From contig JAYWIR010000001.1 in assembly GCA_036172245.1 (NCBI GenBank), forward strand, positions 62,001-126,000: a stretch of 64,000 nt of DNA, written 5' to 3'. Shown here in pieces: positions 3,421-64,000 of this stretch. Origin of the DNA: Raillietiella orientalis (Eukaryota). The notes below the pieces were generated by a model. The model was given only the letters and a program-made list of their open reading frames with translations. It was not told the origin of the DNA and did no database searches. The number at the start of each line of letters is the position of its first letter. Positions within the stretch are counted from its first letter, which is position 1. A program made the translations under genes and the position numbers.

Positions 3421-4015
3421 TGTTCTTAACGGCTACATGAGCCTTTTGCTTTTCTTGTCCGTATTACGCTGCTTCACTTCTAGTGGTGCACGAAATTAAA
3501 GTGTTGCTTAAAGAGTGGTACTTCTGGTCTCTCCTAAACCGGTTTGAAATTTTTTGCATGTTGCAATTACTTCAAACTGGAAGATCGGAAACCACTGCTT
3601 GCGACCATGTGTGCAAACCAGAAAACAACAATAATAATAATAACCCAGAAATTAGCAGGCCGATTTCTAAGCCATTTTGGTCTTGACTGTGGTGAGAATT
3701 ACAATGGGTTGAACAAACATTGGTACTAAATGAACAATAAGCAAAAAGTGAACTTTTTGTGCAGTACTTTTATCAATTTGTTACACTGAATATAAGATCC
3801 ATTTTCCTTTCTGCTACACCTTTACAATTTTTATTGCAATAAATATGCAGGGGATTTGGGGTACACAGTATGCACAAATTTAAAACATTACAAGTATGTT
3901 TAATGCTACCTTTTGGAAACATGATGATATCAAAATCATTTATTGAAAGCTGTTTTTTGCATTAGCAAATCTCACTAGGCAAAAAAAAAAAGTTCAATAA
4001 TTTGTTCATGGTTGC

Positions 4016-7000
4016 TTATTTCGTATCCAAAGTGGATCTAACTGATCCAAAGGATCACTGGAATCTCGATTTGTACCGATACTTGACTTCGGATTAAGAA
4101 ATTTTTCTTTGGTAAATTTTATTTTTTTAGATTGCTGATCCTGGGCTTCAAGATGGAATGTATTGGGATTAAGGCAGGCCAACACTCTAGATACAGAGGC
4201 ATCCTCTGTTGCTGGCTTTGGCTCACAAGATTGGGCACAATACCTGCCTGATTCGGGTGAAGCATCTATGGTACTACTAATTAGGATTCTATGATAAACA
4301 GCTTACCACCATCATGTAGAGTCACACCACCATATTCCTGGGTGCTGGTAACAACTTCACTACGCTCAGCCTGCTGAGCACTTTTGTGTTTAGACACAGT
4401 GGTGCTAATGACATGTTGCACATATGCCCAGTATGCCTGATAACAGAAATGCAGCTGACTACTATCTTGAAGCATGGCTCGTCGCTGACTGCTCATTGAG
4501 AGTGCAAGCTGCATCAAGTCTGCAAGTCCATGTCCAGTATGGATCTCATTGGTAGCTGCAGTTAGCAAGCAGAATATCCCAGATTTTCCCACTCCGGAAA
4601 GGCAATGAACCACAATGGGATGTTGGCTACTGCGTTGTTTTCCATAATAATTCAAGACAAGATCCACGAAAAGCATGAGCTGAACAGAATTCCTACATTC
4701 ATTATTACCAAGATGCCTGCAATTTACTAGCCAATTACCTATTGGGCCAGTTTAAAAACTGAAGATGCAGAACAACCTGAGACACTTTGCCTTCCCGCAT
4801 GCTGACAGTGAGAATGCGTTCAAAGCAGCCTGCATTTGTCTTTTGACTTTGTAACTGCACACTCACTGCTCCAAATTCTCTGGTTGCACCTCGACTACTT
4901 GGCCAGTACTCTAAGCCATGCATCTGCACTGTAATCAGCTGTGTTCCATCAAATAACACAAACCTCTTCTTCTCCCAGTAAACAAACAATTACTTCAACC
5001 TGTTCTTGCAAAACCATGCTCCAAAAATCTTGATAAGTGGATGGTAGTGGGCACTGGGTTGCTATAAATTCAGGAGAATGGGGGCTCAGCTTCTGAATAA
5101 ATCTATTCATAAGCACAGAAAAATACAATTTACGCTCTACCTACTCGAATGTACGAAGCATTAATGTAATCATCTTTGGTTATTGGAAGTTGAACACGAC
5201 TGAAATCATATGGCAAAATATCTGGGAAACGATTTTTCATGGGATAACAGCGTGCTACTGAAATGCTAGAACGCCGTCCAACTGATTCCTACACAGAACA
5301 CGTACTCCACCCTTGCTGTTTAATCCTGCTTTTTACCTGCTGCTCAACATATTCCTTCCATCTGAGTTCCAGATGAGTGATCCCATTTAAAGTTTTTTTT
5401 TCTAGACTTTCAACAAGCTTGCCAAATTTCTCCCCATCTATGCATAGTTTTTCCAAAACTTCAGTCTGACTCAGTGGACTTATGTTTTTGGACACCTCTT
5501 GACTCTGAGCTGATGGTGGTACATTGGTTACCTACATGACAACTGATATGCAGTACTATAATGAACCCTCAAATCTACCTTTGGAGGCTGAGAAAAACAA
5601 TCTCTGTCAGTAGACAGATCCTGAAATTTGGTCTCCAACGTCGATAATTCAGGATCTGGGGTGGGCTGATAAAATACCGTGGCTAACAAATCAACATTGG
5701 ACATAGGTGCCACCTTAACAGTTGATTTGGCTGGGAACAGATCTTCCTGATGGCTGCACTGAGGGGGCATAGGATTATTTGATACAGGCAACACAGATGG
5801 AAAAGTAGCAACATCAGTATGGCTACTGACAGTTAAAGGAGAGGGTATCACAGAGGTAGAAGGTGGCAATGGAGAAACACTAGAATAATCAACAGGGAGA
5901 GGAGACACATTACAATTAAAAGGGAAATTCTGGGTGGTGGGAATATTCTGCATCACAGATATATTAGGCTGACTTGTAGAGACATTTCTAACTCCTGAGG
6001 ATGCTATATGGGATAAAGTACTGTTTGTATGGACAGCAGTTAACAAAGAAGAACACAAAGAAGGATTATTTGCCGAGATGAAGGAACCATCTGAATGAGG
6101 CACACAGTGTGATGGCATTGAACTGCAATTAGGAATGTTCACTGGTACTTGATTCCAAATTTCCCCTGTTGGTTTTCTTGAAGAACTATAAGAATTATAT
6201 GGTGTTGCAACTACATTGAACAAATTCTGATTATTTTTAGTAGAGCATCCATCAGCTGGAAACGCAGTTCTGGAAGCAGCATTATAACCAAACTCAACAC
6301 TCATGAAAGGCGGAGTTTCATGGGAAATATCAACAGGTCTATATGCACTGGCTTCAATATGCATTTGGTGGAATAATGGTGGACGGTACTGAGTAATTGG
6401 AGATGGAAAAGCATGGAAAGGTAAAGAATTCTGTGGCGTGCCATACAAAGCTGATTGTGGATAGGGAACAGAATAGTTTGGAGTAATATTTTCAAATTTT
6501 GTTGAACATGATGCAGGAAGATTGCCACTATTTATAGAATAAGGATGAGACAAATTTGGCTCATGTGGTAAAAAACCATGACTCATGATTTCATGTCTTC
6601 GGGAAGTCGTTGATTCCGGCAATTGTGACTTAATAGACTTGTATTCAGGATTTTGAATTGGCTGACAAATCTTATTAGAAGGGACAAAGGTAGATTTACG
6701 GCCAGTAGCTGAACTACCATGAATTTCTGGTGCAGGTATTTGGTCCATAGAGGATTCATATGATTTGATGTTCGCACTTTGGTATGCAGGATTCTCCATG
6801 AACGCTGATGAACTAAAGCATATGTCACTAAGTGGCACAGGAAATGGTTTTACTGATTCTCCTATGCATCCATTCAGCACAGGTCCAGGAAGATGATGAG
6901 TCTGAAGTGAAACTGAATTTGACTTCTGACTTGGTATGTGATGAACTTTGTCACTATTATCTACAAGTCTTTCTGACTGTCTCTTTCCCAAATAATCTGT

Positions 7001-9813
7001 TAAGACTGGCTGCTGCATGCTATTGGCTTTTTGCTGCCTCTTTTGATCTTGTTCTTGGCAAGAGGCACGCAGTTTAGTAAATATTTCAATGATGCTCTTT
7101 TCTAATTTCCCATAAAAATCGATTCCATCTTGTTCTTTTTTAAGAATTTCCTTACAGTTGTCAAATGAACTAATAAGACTCTGAATTGTTGCTTCTCTTT
7201 GCTTAAGTACGTCAATGATCATTTTTCTCATGTGACCATATTTTGCATTGGCCTCCACTAATGCAGAAGTCAGATTATCTTGTGCCAATAGATTTTGTTC
7301 CAAAAGTGCAATGTGAGTACTGTGCTTTTTTAATTCTTCTGCGAACAGTTCCTGTGATTGCTGATCTTGTGAAAGAATCAACAACTTTACTGTGATATCA
7401 TCTGCTTCCAGATTTGCATATAGTTCAGATTCCAGAGTTTCACGCTGTACTTTCATCTCATCCACTTTATTAAGCAATCGCTGGATATCATGGAAAGCAG
7501 CCAATCCTTCTGGGTCTATTGATGAAGTATAATGCTGAGGTAGTTGCCAAGAGCTATCTTAGTTTAAATCTCACCAGTGACTGATGAAACTGAAGGGATG
7601 TGATGTTGTTGCAATTCTTTTAAGGGCAGCATTAACAAGCGTGCATTCTCTAGATAGAAGGATGCTGCTTTATGGAGAGCACAGTTAGATGCTTCTGCTT
7701 TCTGGTGGGCATCTTGGCAATGGGCTATCTCCTGGGCCAGCTCTGCAATCAGAGTAGATGGTGCACGTTTCCCAAATGTTGCTTGAAATAATGCCTCTTT
7801 TTTTTCTTCTTCCTAAACAATAAAGAAAGTAAATTACACACGATGGCAACATAGTCTGATGGATTAATATCGCAATACTACCAGGAAATCCTAAATGGAT
7901 AAAAAGGAAAAAACTAATTTTTTGAACCAAAAAAGAAATGCATTTAACAGTCACCTGAAGCAATGTGCGTGCTTCTTCCAAATGTGCCTCAACTTCATGG
8001 TATAAGCCAGATAACTCTCTAATAGCATCAACAACTTGTTGCACTATGGACTGGTTAACACTCAACTCAGCACACTGATCAATTAGAGTCTGTGGTAATG
8101 AATCGCCTTTCTTATGAGCTTCCAGTTGCTCCAAATGCAGAGAGCCTAACAAAATATCCAATTCTTGATTCTTCTCCTGCACAAGTTGAGAATATTTCCT
8201 ACGTACTTTGGCCTTCTCTTCACTATGAGGAAGCACATTCTATCTAATTCTCCATGGAAGTATTGATTTACCTGTAAACAGATGCCAACTTGTGAATCTG
8301 CATAGGGATTACACATGCAAAGATATCAGGGCCAGCAACTTCATCATCCTCACAACTAAATGATATACCTTTGACTAAAGAGGCACCTTTCAGAGGGGGT
8401 AAAGTTTCAATTTCAGGAACTTTTTCATGATAAATAAAATCATTTTCTTGATTAGCTTCCTTTAAAAAAGCAGTCACAGTCTCCTCAACGTGATCAAGGG
8501 TATTCTTTAACTCCTTGAAAGACAACTGATGAAGTCATCTTCAAGCTTATAGTAGCTTACAGTATTGGAATCCAGCATTTTTGAAGCTCTTTTGGCTTCC
8601 TTGATTTTTGAAGAAGCCTGCTGAAAATAAGCTACTCTAGCACCCATGCGTTTAAATTCTGCGGCCTGCAATCCCTGACATAAATTACAAAGAGCTCCAA
8701 AGAGTGGTAGCTTGAAATTGATGTTTCGTAACCACTTCTAAAAAATCTTCATAACCATGCACACAAATGAAAAACTAACTTGGCACAACTTCGATCTGAG
8801 AGTAGACATTGATGGTCCTTTAATTATTTGGCTGAGCTCTTGCTCCAGATCTGTATAAAATTCAATAAGCTGAGCAGCTACTTTGGCTACCACCTCAATT
8901 ATTGAACAGAAAGGGAGGAAATTTTAGCAACTCACCTATAATAATACTTTTACGATGATCTCTGATGCTTTTCCATAAAATACACTCCTGTGCTTGAGCT
9001 AACATTAACTTAGCATAAAATGTCAATAAATCTTTGGCCATATCTGAAGGCAAAGATGACGACCAAGTATCATAGAGATGCTATAAGAACATTTATCCCA
9101 GCTTTTCTTATTTGTAAACTCACCTGAAATGCCCAAGCAGCACATTGGAAATGAGTACAAGATAATTTCATATCTTCAGAACCATAAATATTACCAGACT
9201 CGCCCAGTTGGGAATGAAGTGCACCTATGTTATACAGAATGCAAGCCATTTCGAAATTCAGATCAGCCTTTTCATAAATATCTTCCCGATTTGCATGTTT
9301 CCTGTGATCATGTTGATAACATTAAAACATGATTGTTTACAAGATAAACATACATACCAAGAAAACAGTGGAGCTTTTTTGTCATCTGTTCCTAAATATG
9401 GGAATTTTTTCTTAACCAATTGGAGCTGGCAATAATAACGTTTCATTATGTTACATCCTGCAATACTAAAAGGAGGATGCGTTGCAGAAATTCTCAGTGC
9501 TTCTAACTGCATGACTTCATCTGTGAGAGTCACCGGATTTTCTTCATAGGAATTTTTTACATACTAAAGACAACATTGTAAGCCATCGTTCAAGCTTTCT
9601 TATTGCAATACATATTTGGAAATGTATACATAAATTTGTTGCCGTTACCCACTAAATGAAACTTATCGCTTTGCAATGCATAAAAATCACTGAGGATACA
9701 GTAACACAAAAACTTGCCTCGGTTATTGATGCTGAGAAATCCGCAGTATTTACAGCTTGCTTTAAAGATAAACTTAGCATGGGAAGTAAGGGAAGAGATT
9801 CCAAATTCTGCAT
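4016..9813 (-). CDS. PTPN23: Tyrosine-protein phosphatase non-receptor type 23 (HD-PTP/Myopic): Bro1, V/coiled-coil, Pro/Ser-rich region, PTP-like domain; multi-exon
   Basis: N-terminus MQNLESLPLLPMLSLSLK|YVKNSYEENP..GCNIMKRYYCQL; FEMACILYNIGALHSQLG; ENDFIYHEKVP; YSEEKAK; KNRFPDILPYD; DDYINAS; VHCLSGVGKSG; C-terminus DPLDQLDPLWIRK* (stop 4018-4016). Confidence 0.95.
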
Positions 9814-19996: not shown

Positions 19997-21682
<1,686 letters not shown>

Positions 21683-24305: not shown

Positions 24306-26001
<1,696 letters not shown>

Positions 26002-31390: not shown

Positions 31391-33086
<1,696 letters not shown>

Positions 33087-42377: not shown

Positions 42378-43839
42378 ATGACTGCTTTAAAAACTGGAGT
42401 GTTCATTGTGGCTGCAAGGAGAACTCCTTTTGGCGCTTTTGGGGGTAAATTTGTGGATAAAACATGTACTGATCTTCAAGAAGTAGCTAGTAAGGCTGTG
42501 TTATCTGATAGTAATGTAAATCCTGAGAAAGTGGATTCTGTCATCATTGGCAATGTGATCAGTGTAAGTCACTGTCAAAAATGAATTCTTCATCTTGAGC
42601 ACACAGGCATCAGCCACAGATGCTACATACTTGGCACGGCATGTGGCTTTGCGCTGTAATTTGCCAGTTCATATTCCCTGCCTAGCAGTCAACAGGCTGT
42701 GTGGATCTGGTATGCAGTCAGTGATCAGTGGAGTTCTAGTATGTGATTGATATTGTTCACAGACACACTTGCACTGTAAATTAGGAAGTGTTAACAGGAT
42801 GCAGCCAGATAATACTAACAGGGGGAACTGAAAATATGAGTCAGTCTCCTTTTGCCTTGAGAGACATGCGCTTTGGAACACGCCTAGGAACAGACCTGAA
42901 AATTGAAGACAGTCTTTGGTCAGCACTAACAGACAAACACATCAATACACCCATGGGACTAACTGCAGAAAACCTTGCAGAAAAATTCAATATTACCAGA
43001 GAAGATTCAGAACAATTTAGTCTGCAGTCACAGCTACGCTGGAAACAAGGCATCACTTGTGTCCAACATTAATATTTTCTAATGTGCTTTTAATAGCTCA
43101 TGATGAAGGTAGATTCAAAGCAGAAATCTGTCCTGTAAAGATTCAGGCAAAAAAGCTGGATGTTATTGTGGACTGTGATGAGCATCCTCGCCCTAACACA
43201 ACTCTAGAAGGTTTATCAAAGTTACCTGCAGTTTTCAAAAAAGGTGGAACAGTGACAGCAGGCACTGCATCGGTAGAAACTTAGTGGGAACATAACCAAG
43301 TACAAACTATTTGTAGGGTATCTGCGATGGAGCTGGTGCTCAGCTGATTGCAGATGAAGAAGCATGTGCTCAAAATCAGCTGGTTCCTCTGGCCAGAATA
43401 GTAGGATTTTCTGTAGTTGGTTGTGATCCCAACATAATGGGTATTGGACCAGTCACAGCAATCCAAAAGCTTTTAAAAGCTGTCAATTTGCCACTGCACA
43501 ACATAGACTTGATTGAGGTAAGAGGAAATTGGTGAAGAATGCTACGTTCTCTAGATTAATGAGGCTTTTGCATCCCAAACTATTTCCTGCCAACGGGAGT
43601 TGGGAATAGACTCAAATCAGTTAAATGTAAATGGTGGTGCTATTGCTCTAGGTCATCCTCTTGCTGCTTCAGGGTCTCGAATCATTACGCACTTAGTACA
43701 TGAATTACGGTAATGTTATGTATGCCAACAAAGAGAATTTCCCGAATTCTTTTGTAGGCGCCAAAAAAAACGATATGGTCTCGGGAGTGCTTGTATAGGA
43801 GGTGGCCAGGGAATAGCAATGCTTTTGGAAAGTTGTTAA
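42378..43839 (+). CDS. ACAA2: Mitochondrial 3-ketoacyl-CoA thiolase; exons 42378-42563, 42607-42738, 42785-43049, 43097-43272, 43317-43517, 43555-43709, 43758-43839
   Basis: [79 protein letters not shown]. Confidence 0.96.
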
Positions 43840-46557
43840 CTTGGCTGCAAAGCCATATAGAGCTTGGTGACTACTGTGTGGACAATCTGTTGGATGTGCT
43901 CATCTTCATTACAGATGACGGTCAAAGTAGAAAGATCAATATGAGCAGTTTTGCCATCTATCACCACATACACATGCTCTCCTTTGTACAGTTTTGGTAC
44001 AGATTCCTCACCAAACATTTCTTGCAGTGTTTCTATTACACATTCCTGTGGGGCAATGAAAATATTCTGCATATTTTTCTTACCTTGAAATGGGTACGGT
44101 CGATGCGGGAAATTGGTGGGACTGTGAAAGGCACAGATTGCTGGGTTTGCTTCTCAGCTTGTAATACCACTGTCAGTACAGCATCAGCATACATATCATT
44201 GATAGGACCTGCTTCCCACTAATAAACAGGTTTGATTGACAATATGCAATTTGAAGCAAACCTCCAGAATCACTAGGTTCTTCTCAAGAACCAGCTTTAT
44301 GGCTCCAAAAATTCTGATGCCCTTCTTATTGTCTTCTTGCAAGCACTCCAGTTGTCCTGATAATTGTGATAATAAATACTGAAGCAACTGTATATTTCCT
44401 GAGAAGTATACACTCTGACGCTGTGTGACCACACTTGTTGTCATATTGGTATACTCTTATGGTGGCTGATATATTCTGCAACCATAACACCCTACTTACT
44501 TCCCAAATCTGTTGGTGAGAGTAAATGATACGTAAAATTCCGTTTCACCAGAATACCAGACAGTTTAAGGTCATCCTTTGGAGGCTCCATGGCCAATGTC
44601 CCCATAACCTACCTCAAACATAAAACTTACATTAGTAAACTAGATGGCTCACCTTAGCTGTCTTTTCACCACGGAAGTACAATTCTACACTCTGTGTGTT
44701 CCGTGGATTGTGAACCTGAATAGCAGCACTACTGTCATCCTCATATTCACGAACAAGTGCTGCTTTCAACCGATTCATCTCATTCTGCTCACCATGCACC
44801 AACACCTTTAACAGATTTTTAATGCCAGTACACTTGTATGGGAGATATGCTAACCACATGTGGAGGCTTCAGTGCTCTAATAAACTCAGAGGTCTGCTTG
44901 TAATCTGTATGTGCACTGAAAGAGATGTAATGCACAGACATGCGCAATGGTAGCTTTTGACCAGTCATTGTAATAATTTCCTCTGGCTCTGATAAAATGT
45001 GCTTGGCCAGAGTTCCTTCAACACAATATCCTAATAAACTGTTTTAATTCCTTAAATGAGCATGAATATCTAACCTGCTATAATTACACCATTTTTAGGA
45101 TCAATGCACCATGATTCAAACAGTTCTCTAGACAACCCACTTTGCATCATTCCCGGAGAGGCCATAATAACACAGGGACCTATATCATCAAAGTGATCAA
45201 TGCCCTGCATGCAAATTATTAGAAATGCAACAAATTCATCATTCCTACTTTTAAATTCGAAATATGCCGAAAGACAAAGGGATTGCTAATGGCAATCTGA
45301 CGCTTGATACGCTCATTCATAGCATTTATATATGTCTGATAAACAGCCATACATTTCTTGGCCAAGGAAGATGCGTAGTATATGGGAATATCATGGAGCT
45401 CTGGATGGTTTGCCCAATATTCATCTTACAAGACAATATTTAACATGAATCACATGTTAGACAAACCAAGAATAAGCAGCAGCTCTTGTGCACGTCCTAA
45501 AGCAAAAACAGGAATAAGGCAGCGCCCACCACGAAACACAATGTCATGCACCAATCCCGTGAAACGATTCTCACGATCTTCACGTTTCTCATGAATGTGA
45601 GTTCCATAAGTAGATTCCTAAACAAAAGTGAAAAGCTATCAGTATAGTACACATACTGTTATTAATATATCAGGAGAAATCGTGGGTATCTCAGCAGCCA
45701 TTAAATGTCTATCTTCTTCACGTGAAAAGTCTCCAGTGTATAAAACCTATATCAATTATCTAAACCTATTCATTTTGTCATACTTTAACTCCAGCAATCT
45801 CTATCATAAACATAGCTGCCCCAAGTACATGTCCAGCATTGTAAGCCCAAAATTTAATACCATGTACTATTTTTTCTTCATGAAAATTGATAGTCTCGAT
45901 TTTCTCCATGCTAGCTTCTAAATCAGCATCTGTGTAAAGCATTTGTTCAGTTGCAATGTTGCTGTAACACATTATTATCCTATGTGGATATTTTCATGCT
46001 TCCACTTACCTGACTTTGATATAATCTGAAAGAAGCCATCTATAAATTGCCTTTGTAGCATGTGTCATGAAACAACGACCTTTAAAAGTTGTTTTCATAA
46101 GAAACCAAGGTAAGGCACCACAATGGTCAAGGTGAAAACTGAAGATTTATGAAGACATTGTAAATACATGCCCATACATTGATCACTTAAAGAGAAATAA
46201 ATACTAACTGACTAACTAGGAGAAGATCTAATTCATCAGCTTCAATAAGATCAACAAACGGCAATGCATCCATTCCAGATAGACCTGGATGTATACCACA
46301 GTCCAACTACAGACATACTATAAACATCGTTATATTCCTAAAATACTTCACCATTATTTTTTTTCCTTTAAACTCCAACATGATGCATGACCGACCCACC
46401 TCTTGACCAGCACCTCTGAAATTCAAAGATTAATTGGTATTTATCAGCATTTGTTAATTTATGAAGTAGGTTCATAGTTGAGTTGAACTCACAATGGGCG
46501 AATTGTTAATAAATCAGTCTCTTCTAAAGGTATTTCGTGTCGTTTTTTAACTTCCAT
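43836..46557 (-). CDS. CPSF3: Cleavage and polyadenylation specificity factor 73 kDa endonuclease; multi-exon
   Basis: [84 protein letters not shown]-terminus KLYMALQPS*. Confidence 0.97.
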
Positions 46558-55525: not shown

Positions 55526-58500
55526 ATGACTATTTTAAAAAGTTTTCAACGATTACCATGGAAGCAAATTGCGAGGGTGAGATCTGCGACACACATAGAA
55601 GCTCATGTACTTACTTGTAAACTCATACATAAATACTTCCAGTAATGGTAGAAGCGCCCTATATTGGGTCTACACATTGTACACACAATATGCGGTCTTT
55701 ATTTTGAAATCTAGTATTTAGAATAATGCAATTTGAATAATTAGTGTGGATTGCGGATGGACAGATTTGCACAGGATTATTATTTGTTTCTGTAGAACAA
55801 CGAGGCTTTCTCGTTTACTCGCACACTGTCTACCGAGAACACCAATTTGAAAGAAATATTGGCTGGTAAAATTGAAGCTCATGTCAAGGATGTCAAAGAA
55901 TTCAGAGAAAAACATGGATCCACCAAAGTGGGGGAGGTTACAATAGATATGGTATGAAAACTGAAGCATTTGTTTTTTGCCACGAATGATGTCTTCATAT
56001 AGATCTATGGAGGAATGCGAGGAATCAAGGCATTAGTAACAGAAACTTCAGTTCTCGATCCGGAACTAGGAATCGAATTTAGGAACTATACTATCCCTGA
56101 AGTGCAAAGGTTACTTCCTAAAGCATCAGGAGGTATTGAACCTTTACCTGAAGGATTGTTTTGGTTATTATGCACAGGAGATATCCCAACAGAAAAGCAG
56201 GAAAGTATTGTTCTTAACCTCATGTCATTAATTTTAGATTTTCAATTTGGAATTTGTTAATGGATAGATCTCATTTTTAATGAATGTTTCCAATGAAAAT
56301 AGTTGAACTTCAAGGCAAAACATTTGTTCTCCCAGTACTTTTACTGATGCTTGAATGCTTGCATGTGTTGTTACTATCTGTATGTTCATGTCATACTCAA
56401 GTTTATGAAATGTCTGCAGTTGCTTTGATGAAACATTTTAATTTGTATGTGTTCTTTGTTGCTTTTCACTTGTTGTGAAGATTACATATTTCATTCATTA
56501 CTATGAAAATTAGCTTGATTCTTATTTTCTACTGTACTTTTATCTGAGTCAAATCAGCCTATGAATTCAATTTGTTGTTGGTCTTTAAATTTGCATGTAT
56601 AAAAAATCAACCTAACAGTGTCATATAGAGTAATAGACTCCTTAAAACGAGAGTGTGTATTAATCTCCTATGCAATTATCAAATTGCAATGAGTACATAA
56701 AATAACTCAATGTGGTTAGTTCTTTTGATCAAAATTAATATCGGAAAAATTCAGTTAGTTGTGATTTTCGTTTTTGATATCTTTAATAATCCAGTTTAAA
56801 TAATTCATTACAATATTACTATAAGTGAATATTATTATATTTTCAGTGTATATGTATGATACTTGTAGTTCTTGTATTGTATTTCATATTATTTTATTTT
56901 TATTTGGTTATAGAGCTCTTAAACAAGATCTTACACCCATGCTGCAGTTGTGAATCCTGCACACCTATGTTGTAAACTTTATGCCATTATTACTGCAAAT
57001 TTTGTATTTCAAAAGCATTTTACCATCTTACATGAAGTCATGCATGTGTTTGCTGGCAATTAAATCCACCTTGTTAGGGTAAACTACATTCTATTTAAAA
57101 CTATTCTTTGGCAATGTTTCAATGCATGCCAAAGTTTTGGCAAACTGTTGCTCTTTCCCCTCTTCCTCATGAAATTCCAATTAATTTGTTGTCTGGATTT
57201 TTAATTCTTCGGTCATCTTATGATTTAATGAAGCTAGACAGTAAATAAGATTATATTTTTCAGTTTTTCCAGCATAATCTTTAATATCTAGAATTGAAGG
57301 AGCAACAACACTTGTTTAAAGATGCTGATACGTTGCTTCTACTGCTCATTGATAACACTCAATCATTATTTCAAAATCATAAAGTTATATGTATTTACTA
57401 GACATTTTATTACAATTCCTTCATTGAATGTTTTGTATGTACTATATGAAAATGATGAAAGTAATACTTAAGTGAAGTTATTTTATGTGAATATAATGGT
57501 GTAAAGTTGTTATGATTCTCATCTCAGATAGTAAAATATCTGGTATATGATATGCACTTGATATCTATATGCAAAATTCAAAAGACCATGACCAAGTATT
57601 TCAGCTTGGCATTTTTAGCATCTTGTTTCTGTGAGCATGTGTATGTGGTTTGTAATTATTTCATAAAATTTTAAAACTAATAAGTAGTTAAAGCGTATAA
57701 TATTAAAAAAATGAATTTTAATCCAAATTTCTCTAAGGGATATCTTTAATATCTGTGTAATTAATTTTAGTCAATCACCTTTTGCTTTTTGGTACTTTAT
57801 AGAATTTTTTTTCATTGCATTCACAATAATAAGTGTTACACCTTTTAATATTTGGCATGTATTGTCCAAAAATCTTCATGTTATTCTTTAACATATATAT
57901 ATAATTGTGATTTTAAGATGTTGATATGATATCTTTAAGCTAGATTAGCAATGCTGCTGGTAAATATTATTTATCCTTGTGGTTTGTATTTGGAATATAT
58001 GTGATAACCTCCAAATATTAATTAATACGTTCTATGTACAGGTGAGAACTCTTTCCAAAGAATTGGCAAAGAGGGCAGATCTTCCACCCCATGTTGTTGC
58101 TTTAGTAAACACATTTCCTCCACATCTTCATCCTATGGCCCAATTTACTTCAGCTATTGCCAGTCTTTCAACAGAAACTAAATTTGGGAAAGCTTTTACA
58201 GCAGGAGTCCCAAGAAAACAATATTGGGAGGTAAGATAGGAACATGAATATTGTTATTGCTAATTATATAGCTAAAGTTCACTTAGTTTCTGGTATAATG
58301 TGCTGTTTCCCCTTTAATGTAACTTGTTTTCTTAATTACATGATGTTTTAAATTACCATTTTATAAATGAAATTCAGTTTTTTCGAGAAAAGAAAAACAT
58401 GGAATTAATACAAGTATATTTGATGTATTATTGTATTTATTTGATATACAGTGTTTTCCAAGTTGAACTGAGTGCTTCAAAAATGAATGCTTGACCATTT

Positions 58501-60930
58501 TTAATCGAGTTCTTTCAAATGCTGTGCTTATTTTACATATGTTTTGTCTACATACTGTTCTTGAACTGTAATTAAAAAATTCACAGCCTTCCACAGTTTC
58601 ATTACAATATTTCTTTGTTATGGGTCATGGTAATTAATTCATGGATTCTTGAAGTTTTCACATCTGTCCGAACAAGGATTCTAAAGATTGTCAAGAAAAC
58701 AATTTGAATCAGATGGCTATTTTTAGTTGTAGTACAGCACAAAAAAAAAATTGTAGAATAAGATCAGTTTTGCATAATTTTCACATTTCAAGATCTTGAA
58801 AGAACAGAATACAAATACTAAAAATTGAATCAGATGAATAAGAATTTTAGCTTTTAGCTAAGGTTGGGAGCATTTTAGCTGATAGATTGTGAACACTACT
58901 TTCTGATCTCTACTGAGGCTGTAGTTTGTAGCAAAACTTATAATTGTGAGTTTGCATAGCATCTCCACAGCATGCATTGTACGGAAAAAAGAAAAACTGC
59001 TTGCAATATTGAGTGTATGCACAGGTTCCTTTTGATTATTGTTGATATAATGCAACTCTGGTGACAGTATGTGTTCTTTGGTCAACAAGAATGCCTTTTT
59101 ATATTATGCCAAAGTATAATCAGTTTTTGTATGTGCGGTAGAAGTTTTGCTGCCAACTTTCTGAGTGTATAAAGAAGCTCTTTTGCCCTTTTTTATCCAA
59201 GATTGCTTTCAGTTTATTTTATTGCAAAGCCTTTATTGAATTTAAAACCAATGTGTGCTATAACAGACTTTGAATAACCCTTGTTATCATATGTAGTTTT
59301 AAATTCCAAATTTACGATTCGTATTTTCCGATCCTTTTCAGAGTTAGACTTTTGGATGTTTTCCTTTGTTTTCGAATTAAAGAATCAGACCAATTGTGTA
59401 TGCTTGCCATATTCTAATGTCAATTTTATTTTAACAGTCGCTTATTTTTTTGTATCAGCTCCAAACAAACTTTATCATTACTGTTTGCAAAGTTTTTGAA
59501 AGCATTGATCATGGAGATTAAAAAAGCGTTGTTTTATAGTTTGTTTATGAAGATGCACTTGACCTCATAGCAAAAGTGGCTACATTGGCAGCAAGCATTT
59601 TTCGAAATTTGTATCGTGATGGCACTAGCATTGGAGCAGTAGATCTAGATAAAGATTATAGTGCTAATTTTTCTTCAATGCTGGGATTCGATGATCCGCT
59701 GTTCACAGAACTTATGAGATTGTATTTAACACTTCACAGGTAAGAAGCCTATGCATGCATGTAGTTTTCTCATGCAGTCTGACATGATATTAGCAACTTG
59801 ATCTCTTGAATTTCAAGAAAGTTTTCCGAACTTGGAAATTTTTTCTTGAAATTCTGGTGTGTTCGTGGTTATGGCACATTTTACTAAATATAAAGTTAGG
59901 AACTATTTTACGATTTCCATAACTTATAAAAAGTATCTGACATCAGATGTTTTTTGTCTTTCATTAGGTGACAACAAAATTTGGAAGGTAATTTAGAATG
60001 TGCATGTGATTATAGTTTTTCGTAGTTTTCACACCACATTATTCACATTTTCAAGTGCAAGTTGTGCTTGTCTATTTCTAGAATTTTTTTTTTTGTTGGT
60101 TGTCGGAATGTAATTTCTTTAGTGATCACGAAGGAGGTAATGTCAGTGCTCATGCAGTGCATCTGGTATCATCAGCTCTATCCAATCCGTACCTTGCATT
60201 TTCGGCCGGCATGGCTGGACTTGCTGGACCTCTTCATGGACTTGCCAACCAAGAGGCCAGTAACAGCACCAAATTCCTTCATATTTCTTGTTACAGGTTC
60301 TTGTGTGGTTGACAAAATTGCAAAAGGAATTGGGTGACAATGTTACAAAGGAAGCAGTTAAAGATTTCATTTGGAAGACATTGAATTCTGGTCAAGTGGT
60401 TCCAGGATTTGGACATGCAGTGTTGAGAGTCACAGATCCAAGGTACATCAGCTTGAGGGAGTTCGCACTAAAATATTTGCCAGACAACAAACTGGTCAAG
60501 GTATAAAAAATTTGTTGGATTGAAGCTTGATAACCAATTTCAGCTTGCAGCAATAGTGTATGAAGAGACAACACCGATCTTGTTGCAACTTGGGAAAGTG
60601 AAAAACCCATATGCAAATGTTGATGCACATTCTGGAGTTCTTCTTCAGGTGAGTTTTAAGCTGTGTTGGGAATGTTTTCATTTTGTAGGAATTACTTATG
60701 ACATGTAAATGTCCTGCTTGCAGTCATGACACTTGTGGTCTTACAGTGCCATTGTTTTTCAGCATTTTGGCATAGATATGGGGTATTACACTGTCCTGTT
60801 TGGTGTGTCAAGGGCGTTGGGAACTATGGCTTCGTTAATATGGGATAGAGCAATGGAAATGCCTATTGAACGACCAAAATCTCATTCTACTGAAGGCTAC
60901 AAAAAGCTAGTGAAACAGTTAGGAAAGTAA
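55526..60930 (+). CDS. CS: Mitochondrial citrate synthase; exons approx. 55526-55576, 55796-55951, 56003-56200, 58042-58230, 59539-59739, 60123-60255, 60297-60500, 60544-60648, 60763-60930
   Basis: [102 protein letters not shown]. Confidence 0.97.
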
Positions 60931-61144
60931 ACCGAGCTAGCAAATCTCTGCAGAAGATACCAGAAATAAAATATTTAATTGAGAATTTCCTATGGCAATT
61001 ATTTGCAAAAAATTCCGTGCTCTTCAACCTCATCCGGACATTAACTCGACCGTAACAAATGAATGCGAGGCAAATTTGTCAAATTCTTTATATTATAGTT
61101 ATCGCTCAGCTGAAATTCAAATCGCTTTCAATCCGTAACTTCAG

Positions 61145-61564
61145 CTAGTTTGATTTGAATTTCCCAAGCAAGTCACTGTCTCTAAACAGGAAGTATTCTT
61201 TGTCGTCCAGCACAACTTTTGTCCCTCCGTATTCGGGAAGTAAAACTTCATCTCCGACGGTTACCGACGGAGGTGTTACTTCTCCCTTCTGGGAATGATT
61301 TGCGTAAAGAGAGAAGAAAGTGGGAAGCAAGAATACCTCGTTCCGGGAACCATTTCCAATCGCGACGACCGTCGCGTTAAGTACCTTTTGCTGGGCTTTT
61401 TCAGGAATCATAATTCCCCCTTTCGTTTTCGTCTCCGCGATCGCCTTCTCAACCAGGACTCGGTCGAACAGGGGGACAAACCTCCGAAGGGCGGCAGAAG
61501 CCTGCAAAGATCACCATCACTCTTTCCTGCACTTTTTTCTTTCTTGCCATCCCATACACACCAT
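61145..61564 (-). CDS. HSPE1: 10 kDa mitochondrial chaperonin; exons 61564-61562 (ATG), 61501-61337, 61288-61145
   Basis: M|ASAALRRFVPLFDRVLVEK..TKGGIMIPEKAQ..|KGEVTPPSVTVGDEVLLPEYGGTKV..LFRDSDLLGK. Confidence 0.96.
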
Positions 61565-62063
61565 AGTGCGCAGCGCTCACTCCACCTCCGCAACCGGAAA
61601 CGACACAGGGCTCACTGCTAGGCAACGGGCTGCACGGCGGCGGTTTATACGTGCGCAACCAAGCGGCAAGCAAGAGTGCCCCATTGGCAAAGCAACAGGG
61701 GATTGCCCTGGCCGAATTCGCCCGGGGGGTCGCCACCGAGCCCGGTCCAGCCGGGAGGGCGAATTACCGGCCGGTTCCGTTCGGGTGGATTCGCAACCTC
61801 CCAGCAGCCTGCTGGGAGGTTGCGGAAATTTCTAGAAATCTATAAATCGGAAATTTCTAGAAAGGTCTGGTAGACCAAGATCGCGCGAGCACATGGCCTC
61901 CGCCGGAAGCTGCGTGTGCGTTTCGGGAAGCGGCAGTCGCAGTTTTCGCCGAGGTACCTGCGGAGCGGGTCGCATTATCCGTGTCGCGTGGAAACAGCGC
62001 GCATCGCTGCTTCGTGTGTTCCCCGTGTGTCGTCGTCGTCGTCCAGCAGGAACGTCCGCCAAG
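61565..62063. promoter_or_regulatory. Bidirectional HSP10/HSP60 promoter
   Basis: 499 nt of GC/CpG-rich DNA between divergent ATGs; contains two HSEs, TATAAA at 61841-61846 and a 16-bp palindrome. Confidence 0.9.
61824..61863. promoter_or_regulatory. Two three-unit heat-shock elements (61824-61838, 61849-61863)
   Basis: gGAAatTTCtaGAAa occurs twice, matching nGAAnnTTCnnGAAn. Confidence 0.85.

Positions 62064-64000
<1,937 letters not shown>

Follow-up and report, generated by a model that had tools for sequence, protein, structure and literature searches.

The DNA analysed here, a stretch of 64,000 nucleotides (nt) of Raillietiella orientalis (contig JAYWIR010000001.1; hereafter the window, in whose numbering all positions are given), carries on its forward strand a multi-exon citrate synthase gene, one intron of which begins with GA where GT would be expected. 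By tblastn, five full-length homologs map between 55817 and 60927; four exons match the Pfam family PF00285 (E values from 8.6e-4 to 3.1e-12; each exon is short on its own), and single exons match the solved pig, chicken and human enzymes (E values of 1e-6 to 1e-28). Once spliced, the model comprises 443 codons without a stop, and 425 of its residues align to the protein P0004 with one single-residue gap. It keeps His, His and Asp at the positions aligning to pig His274, His320 and Asp375, which we take to be the catalytic residues. Identity to the best full-length homologs is ~67–72%, compared with ~78–85% for CPSF3, and no protein more than 85% identical to the citrate synthase exon was present in the protein collection searched. 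Altogether, the sequence points to an intact mitochondrial-type citrate synthase gene that looks functional. Its putative first coding exon is without reference support, presequences not being conserved, and was left out of the intron counts given below. Two of the introns, of 1841 and 1309 nt, are long and AT-rich.

The intron considered here is the longer of these two. The upstream exon ends in CCA ACA GAA AAG CAG, translating to ...GDIPTEKQ, with 56200 as its last base; directly 3' of it the intron starts with GAAAGTATTGTTC from 56201, placing A at base 56202. At its 3' end the intron reads CGTTCTATGTACAG to 58041, with the acceptor TGTACAG, and GTG AGA ACT CTT TCC AAA GAA follows from 58042. 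A sequence-only reading of the window had called attention to this site, giving the CAG exon end at 56200, the TACAG acceptor at 58041, the length of 1841 nt and a donor, CAG/GAAAGT (the slash marks the exon–intron boundary), that equals the U1 consensus apart from A at +2. All of these were confirmed on the sequence, as were two GT dinucleotides that it had pointed out downstream: the GT at 56205–56206 sits out of frame, 4 nt downstream of the exon end, and the GT at 56210 (ATT/GTTCTT), use of which would insert the residues ESI, is the sole in-frame GT ahead of a stop at 56258. Because CAG stands ahead of both intron ends, the same messenger RNA (mRNA) would result from a junction shifted by -1 to -4 or by +1. 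The ends would then be GG-CA, AG-AC, CA-TA, GC-GT or AA-GG, and only the GA-AG register combines an AG acceptor with a U1-like donor. The donor GAAAGT is without the U12-type consensus RTATCCTT, the last two exon bases before it are AG, and A occupies +3. The 3' region listed in Table 1 holds a candidate branch point, proposed from the letters of the sequence.

Table 1. Exons of the citrate synthase gene and elements of its GA-AG intron (window positions).
Feature	Positions	Strand	Remarks
Putative first coding exon	55526..55576	+	ATG, 17 codons, basic presequence-like, donor AGG/GTGAGA; from sequence and open reading frame only
Exon	55796..55951	+	ends ...VTIDM, donor ATG/GTATGA; followed by a 51-nt GT-AG intron
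Exon	56003..56200	+	IYGGMRG...GDIPTEKQ; aligns to 2cts_A residues 41-106
Donor site CAG/GAAAGT	56198..56206	+	7/7 flank match to CAG/GTAAGT; A for T at +2 (base 56202)
Intron with GA...AG ends	56201..58041	+	1841 nt, AT-rich
Rival in-frame donor ATT/GTTCTT	56207..56215	+	exon end 56209, would insert ESI; -7.57 bits
3' intron region	58018..58041	+	TTAAT-type candidate branch region, pyrimidine-rich stretch, TGTACAG acceptor; read from sequence
Exon	58042..58230	+	ends ...QYWE; residues 4-63 align to 2cts_A 110-169, residue 1 = 107
Exon	59540..59739	+	preceded by 1309-nt GT-AG intron (donor GAG/GTAAGA)
Exon	60123..60255	+	His aligning to pig 274; followed by 41-nt GC-AG intron (GAG/GCCAGT)
Exon	60297..60500	+	His aligning to pig 320
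Exon	60544..60648	+	Asp aligning to pig 375
Last coding exon	60763..60930	+	stop TAA

Homology fixes both exon ends. All five full-length homologs align up to the Q at 56200 and resume with the V at 58042 without a gap, and the pig enzyme (2cts_A) is contiguous at 106 and 107, where the upstream exon stops and the downstream exon begins. The PF00285 profile is likewise contiguous, positions 1–56 being followed by 59–104 from the third residue of the downstream exon. Among 120 homologs taken from the matches listed and aligned with MAFFT, 118 cover the junction; none of these has an insertion or a gap there and 108 have Q-V, bearing out the collinearity with a conserved motif across Q and V that had been proposed. 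The ends of protein fragments were also tried as a proxy for intron position and rejected, since 0 of the 120 homologs end at the junction. Enumeration of GT-AG, GC-AG and AT-AC pairs, with donors from 56100–56419 and acceptors from 57700–58139, gave 913 combinations; 64 of them keep the frame and are free of stops, and the 129-residue collinear product comes from none. With both exon ends held in place by conserved residues and no canonical pair collinear, a collinear junction needs the GA donor: taking the sequence at face value, the mRNA has to run from 56200 directly into 58042.

The position of the intron is shared with other organisms. Scanning metagenome contigs with the upstream exon yielded 80 related loci, and the reading frame runs continuously across Q-V in 75 of them (70 by a pattern test and five with the downstream exon at the next base), many of these 75 being transcript-like contigs. 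In four of the 80, an intron with GT-AG ends and the downstream exon beyond it interrupts the gene at exactly the same phase-0 position: L029 (156 nt, donor CAG/GTCAGT), L044 (60 nt, CAA/GTATGA), L045 (89 nt, CAG/GTTAGC) and L057 (60 nt, CAG/GTAATT). The fifth, L052, is interrupted at the same point with the donor CAG/GTATGA and has no downstream exon inside the contig. These five donors match four to six of the seven flank positions, versus all seven in the window, and further intron positions of the window gene are common to some of these contigs. Because the position is common to relatives that use GT, the intron position is old and the GA of the window is, on this comparison of sequences, a T-to-A change in an ancient donor and not a new intron of the type described in the copepod Eurytemora affinis. 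A second group of loci (L070, L072, L055, L051, L053, L048 and L080) has an exon break about six codons farther downstream, near residue 117 of the window's model, which could reflect intron sliding or an independent gain. The exact 29-nt exon string was not found in the metagenome contigs.

Several other origins of the unusual donor were considered and rejected. An origin from a transposon or introner is not supported by the intron, which has neither terminal inverted repeats nor tandem repeats and in which short repeats are at chance level; a stwintron-like split donor would have GGT after CAG, where the window has GAAAGT; and adenosine-to-inosine editing of the donor would yield GG. A search against Rfam gave no RNA gene for the window at gathering scores, nor any for 56100–59600 at E values up to 1.

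To set the donor against its surroundings, we mapped 35 introns in the window, seven in citrate synthase, seven in HSP60, 14 in CPSF3, six in a thiolase gene and one, placed by eye, in HSP10; the tally leaves out a PTPN23-like gene and the tubulin genes. Junction scoring by protein similarity alone misplaces junctions in poorly conserved stretches, for example at the intron at 60501–60543 and at introns of the thiolase gene, and these were decided from the sequence itself. The same was done for two junctions of HSP60, one of CPSF3 and the GC junction of the thiolase gene. The tally is 32 GT-AG, two GC-AG, one GA-AG and no GG introns, in a sample that is small and includes the GA case for which the window was selected. 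The four spliced models (414 + 678 + 391 + 443 = 1,926 codons) contain no stop and no frameshift and are collinear with their references save for small gaps in variable regions, and the assembly looks clean over the codons checked. A weight matrix was built from the seven flanking positions of the 32 GT donors, the real donors themselves being scored leave-one-out. The flanks of the GA site reach 6.82 bits, higher than 31 of the 32, and only one of the 32 matches CAG/G.AAGT at all seven positions. The GT at 56210, which the sequence-only reading had called very weak, indeed scores lowest, at -7.57 bits, under every real donor (the lowest of which has -1.82), and the out-of-frame GT at 56205 lies within the range of the real donors at -0.37 bits.

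Of the two GC-AG introns, that of citrate synthase, 41 nt long (60256–60296, GAG/GCCAGT...TTACAG/), falls where the pig enzyme is contiguous between residues 280 and 281, and its ends are the sole in-frame canonical pair yielding the conserved GLANQE/VLVWL. The other, a probable GC-AG intron of 47 nt in the thiolase gene (43050–43096, AAG/GCATCA), leaves a product collinear with the references; a rival GT at 43059 would change that product by +3 or -1 residues, and its score is under those of all 32 real donors. Most of the mapped introns are short: those of CPSF3 (43839–46536, reverse strand) and of the thiolase gene (42399–43836, forward strand) all measure 37–77 nt, and in HSP60 (62118–63998, forward strand) six of the seven have 44–63 nt and one has 331 nt.

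We propose a model whereby this is a U2-type intron in a functional mitochondrial-type citrate synthase gene, with GA in place of GT at its donor. An ancestral GT donor at an old intron position would have become GA by a T-to-A change at +2, and the seven other donor positions (CAG/G.AAGT) would still pair with the 5' end of U1 small nuclear RNA, so that the site would still be found and used. Recognition would thus proceed through eight of nine U1 base pairs, splicing through ordinary U2-type chemistry, and the mRNA would join 56200 to 58042. The model supposes a correct base call at 56202, removal of the intron between 56200 and 58042 and recognition by extended U1 pairing, a mechanism suggested by the sequence together with published cases. 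From the sequence and its comparisons, we regard a functional GA-AG intron as the probable state of affairs. The prior for a true GA-AG intron, ~1e-4 per intron in an ordinary genome, is of the same order as, or exceeds, the likelihood that any one base is wrong in an assembly free of lesions over the 1,926 checked codons. The perfect flanks, moreover, fit a GA that is tolerated better than an error striking some donor at random.

Several observations weigh against this model. GA occurs in a single one of the 35 mapped introns, and there is no sign of a spliceosome adapted to it. GT stands in all five related contigs that are interrupted here, and a base error or a fresh mutation would look alike. 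The long introns of the window tend to have near-consensus donors (GAG/GTAAGA, CAG/GTAAGA, AAG/GTAACG), and for this reason the perfect flanks are less diagnostic than the raw figure of one in 32. A change from U to A at +2 is also reportedly described, as a rule, as blocking the second splicing step, the wording in the title of Brackenridge 2003 being 'dead-end'. Finally, GA donors make up only ~0.006–0.03% of introns in ordinary genomes, according to PMC5714493 and the available text of PMC10668435.

The donor might simply be GT, the A at 56202 being an assembly or base-calling error or else a rare defective allele of a normal CAG/GTAAGT. Besides the uniform GT of the related contigs and the lack of any other GA among the mapped introns, it speaks for this that one T-to-A change in a strong donor reproduces the observed site exactly. 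Errors are rare here, however, to judge from the four clean models, and base 56202 does not lie in a long homopolymer; null alleles of core enzymes ought to be rare; and complete flanks, found in only one of 32 donors, would follow if GA were tolerated by no other kind of donor, but would be a coincidence if an error had struck at random. We hold such an error or defective allele, the main rival to our model, to be unlikely, with enough in its favour to be taken seriously. The gene could also be a recently disabled or decaying paralog, with the donor mutation as its first lesion and another copy at work. The names of the homologs indicate that animals frequently have two genes for citrate synthase, and the identity to the best homologs is below that of CPSF3. 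Yet every mapped exon is open and collinear, usable splice sites persist in the six other mapped introns, the His, His and Asp residues are retained, and the gene is clustered with HSP10 and HSP60, all of which makes a decaying copy very unlikely.

The remaining alternatives keep the A at 56202 and move the splice site. Splicing from the in-frame GT at 56210 to the same acceptor would give a protein with ESI added; no other GT-AG pair preserves the two conserved exon ends in frame, and GTT-type donors do occur in the window, but the site lacks the G at +5 carried by most real donors, in addition to its score, and not one of the 118 homologs has any insertion at this point, so that we find it scarcely credible. 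Another canonical pair might be used at the cost of a shortened protein: the GT at 56205 with AG at 58059–58060, replacing VRTLSKE by EK; the GC at 56197 with AG at 58045–58046, losing QVR; or a U12-like AT-AC pair, ATATCC at 56181 with AC at 58038–58039, replacing DIPTEKQ by E. All three are in frame and open, the score of the GT at 56205 is that of an acceptable donor, and ATATCC corresponds to the core of a U12-type donor, with a TTAATTAAT stretch 13 nt ahead of the AC. Each of the three, however, removes residues that are kept gap-free in 118 of 118 homologs, and chance gives no account of conserved motifs being encoded in frame by the bases that they would turn intronic. At this intron the donors of the related contigs are plain U2-type GT sites, and the AT-AC intron (motifs at 56181–56188 and 58018–58039) was rejected for its loss of DIPTEKQ; ATATCC, lying in the D-I-P codons, is probably a coincidence of the coding sequence. 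Jointly, the three pairs seem extremely improbable. Even the summed weight of a decaying paralog, splicing at 56210 and the other canonical pairs stays well on the unlikely side.

A functional GA-AG intron, the reading that we prefer, raises the question of whether the genome might read +2 loosely, with G-non-T donors reaching several per cent and including those of ancient housekeeping introns. Such donors amount to three of the 35 mapped introns (two GC, one of them ambiguous, and one GA, the selected case). Loose reading, by which the organism's lineage would join those of Eurytemora and Oikopleura among animals, is a speculation that we rate as rather improbable.

The neighbourhood of the gene offers some further observations. 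Citrate synthase (forward), HSP10 (reverse) and HSP60 (forward) adjoin within 55526–64000. Single predicted proteins of two ostracods are unusually built: P0161 (1043 amino acids) fuses citrate synthase to HSP60, and P0002 (811 amino acids) is an over-long citrate synthase; these models suggest that the same gene neighbourhood exists there and that gene models were merged. Elsewhere in the window, three alpha-tubulin open reading frames of about 450 codons lie on the forward strand at 20309–21679, 24655–25998 and 31740–33083 with repeated flanking open reading frames, in what looks like a tandem array; they start at RECISIH, and their ATG probably lies in a tiny upstream exon. The multi-exon gene at 4009–9563 on the reverse strand, with an exon of 676 codons, resembles by eye a BRO1-domain protein tyrosine phosphatase (PTPN23-like). 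The ~78–85% identity of CPSF3 is to insect and tick proteins, and by its best protein matches the organism is arthropod-like; none of the proteins found came from the same or a closely related species.

If the GA-AG intron is real, an ancient constitutive intron of an essential enzyme has switched from GT to GA and yet works, with all other donor positions at consensus, and the case bears on how much weight the +2 base carries once U1 pairing is maximal. It would also indicate that GA donors can arise apparently straight from GT, as opposed to via GC in Trema. There is a practical side as well: standard gene predictors and aligners for RNA sequencing reject GA, so that such a gene would be annotated as split, truncated or carrying a false ESI, and similar misannotation is documented for human ITPR1 (available text of PMC4176328) and for Eurytemora genes (PMC5714493). 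Were the A a base error, the site would serve only as a flag for assembly polishing.

Among known systems, the copepod E. affinis is the richest in such donors. GA or GG donors were found there in 36 of 297 and 64 of 623 introns (Robertson 2017, PMC5714493), that is, ~10–12% of the introns of curated genes and 3.2% of RNA-supported junctions; AG is obligate before the GA site and A is nearly always present at +3, and the introns are recent, lineage-specific gains that are constitutive and needed for the reading frame (PMC5714493). By comparison, human has 14 GA donors in 222,263 introns, as quoted in the same study (PMC5714493), and the available text of Frey and Pucker 2020 (PMC7072748) names E. 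affinis and Oikopleura dioica as the only species with unusually many GA-AG introns. The parallel with the copepod, implied in the sequence-only reading, is weak. The AG exon end and the A at +3 around GA are alike, as they are for the GA-AG introns of Oikopleura; the age is not, the intron position being common to GT-using organisms, in contrast to the lineage-specific gains of Eurytemora, and one GA and no GG among 35 mapped introns, too small a sample and one that includes the selected case, does not show a copepod-like use of GA.

Single GA-AG introns are closer in kind. Conserved GA-AG introns occur in FGFR genes, and that of ITPR1 was validated by reverse transcription PCR, in the available text of Parada 2014 (PMC4176328), which also states that such introns get misannotated. 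For Trema orientalis, the accessible part of PMC10668435 describes a working GA donor in SYMRK intron 12 that was derived from GC, and gives GA-AG as ~0.01% of introns in five plants. Like those of human FGFR1-3 and ITPR1 and of Trema SYMRK, as far as these sources describe them, the citrate synthase case is a single U2-like GA-AG intron needed for the full-length protein; theirs rest on RNA or genetic proof, and ours is known from its sequence. The Trema site shares with it a one-base change of an older donor, the ancestor being GC there, to go by the same text, and GT, as our comparison suggests, here. For the FGFR site, dependence on a canonical GT lying 6 nt upstream has been reported (available text of PMC7072748 and PMC4176328), whereas no GT occurs in GAAAAGCAG upstream of the citrate synthase donor, the nearest GT lying 4 nt downstream. 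GC-AG introns, two of which occur or probably occur in the window and which make up ~0.5–1.5% in the genomes tabulated in the available text of PMC10668435, likewise deviate from the U2-type donor at +2 and depend on good flanks; unlike GA, which most annotation tools refuse, they form an accepted second donor class. If real, the GA-AG intron of citrate synthase thus adds to a known rare kind, set apart from the introns of the copepod by its age and by the lack of signs that GA is used often, and from those of the FGFR genes by the absence of an upstream GT.

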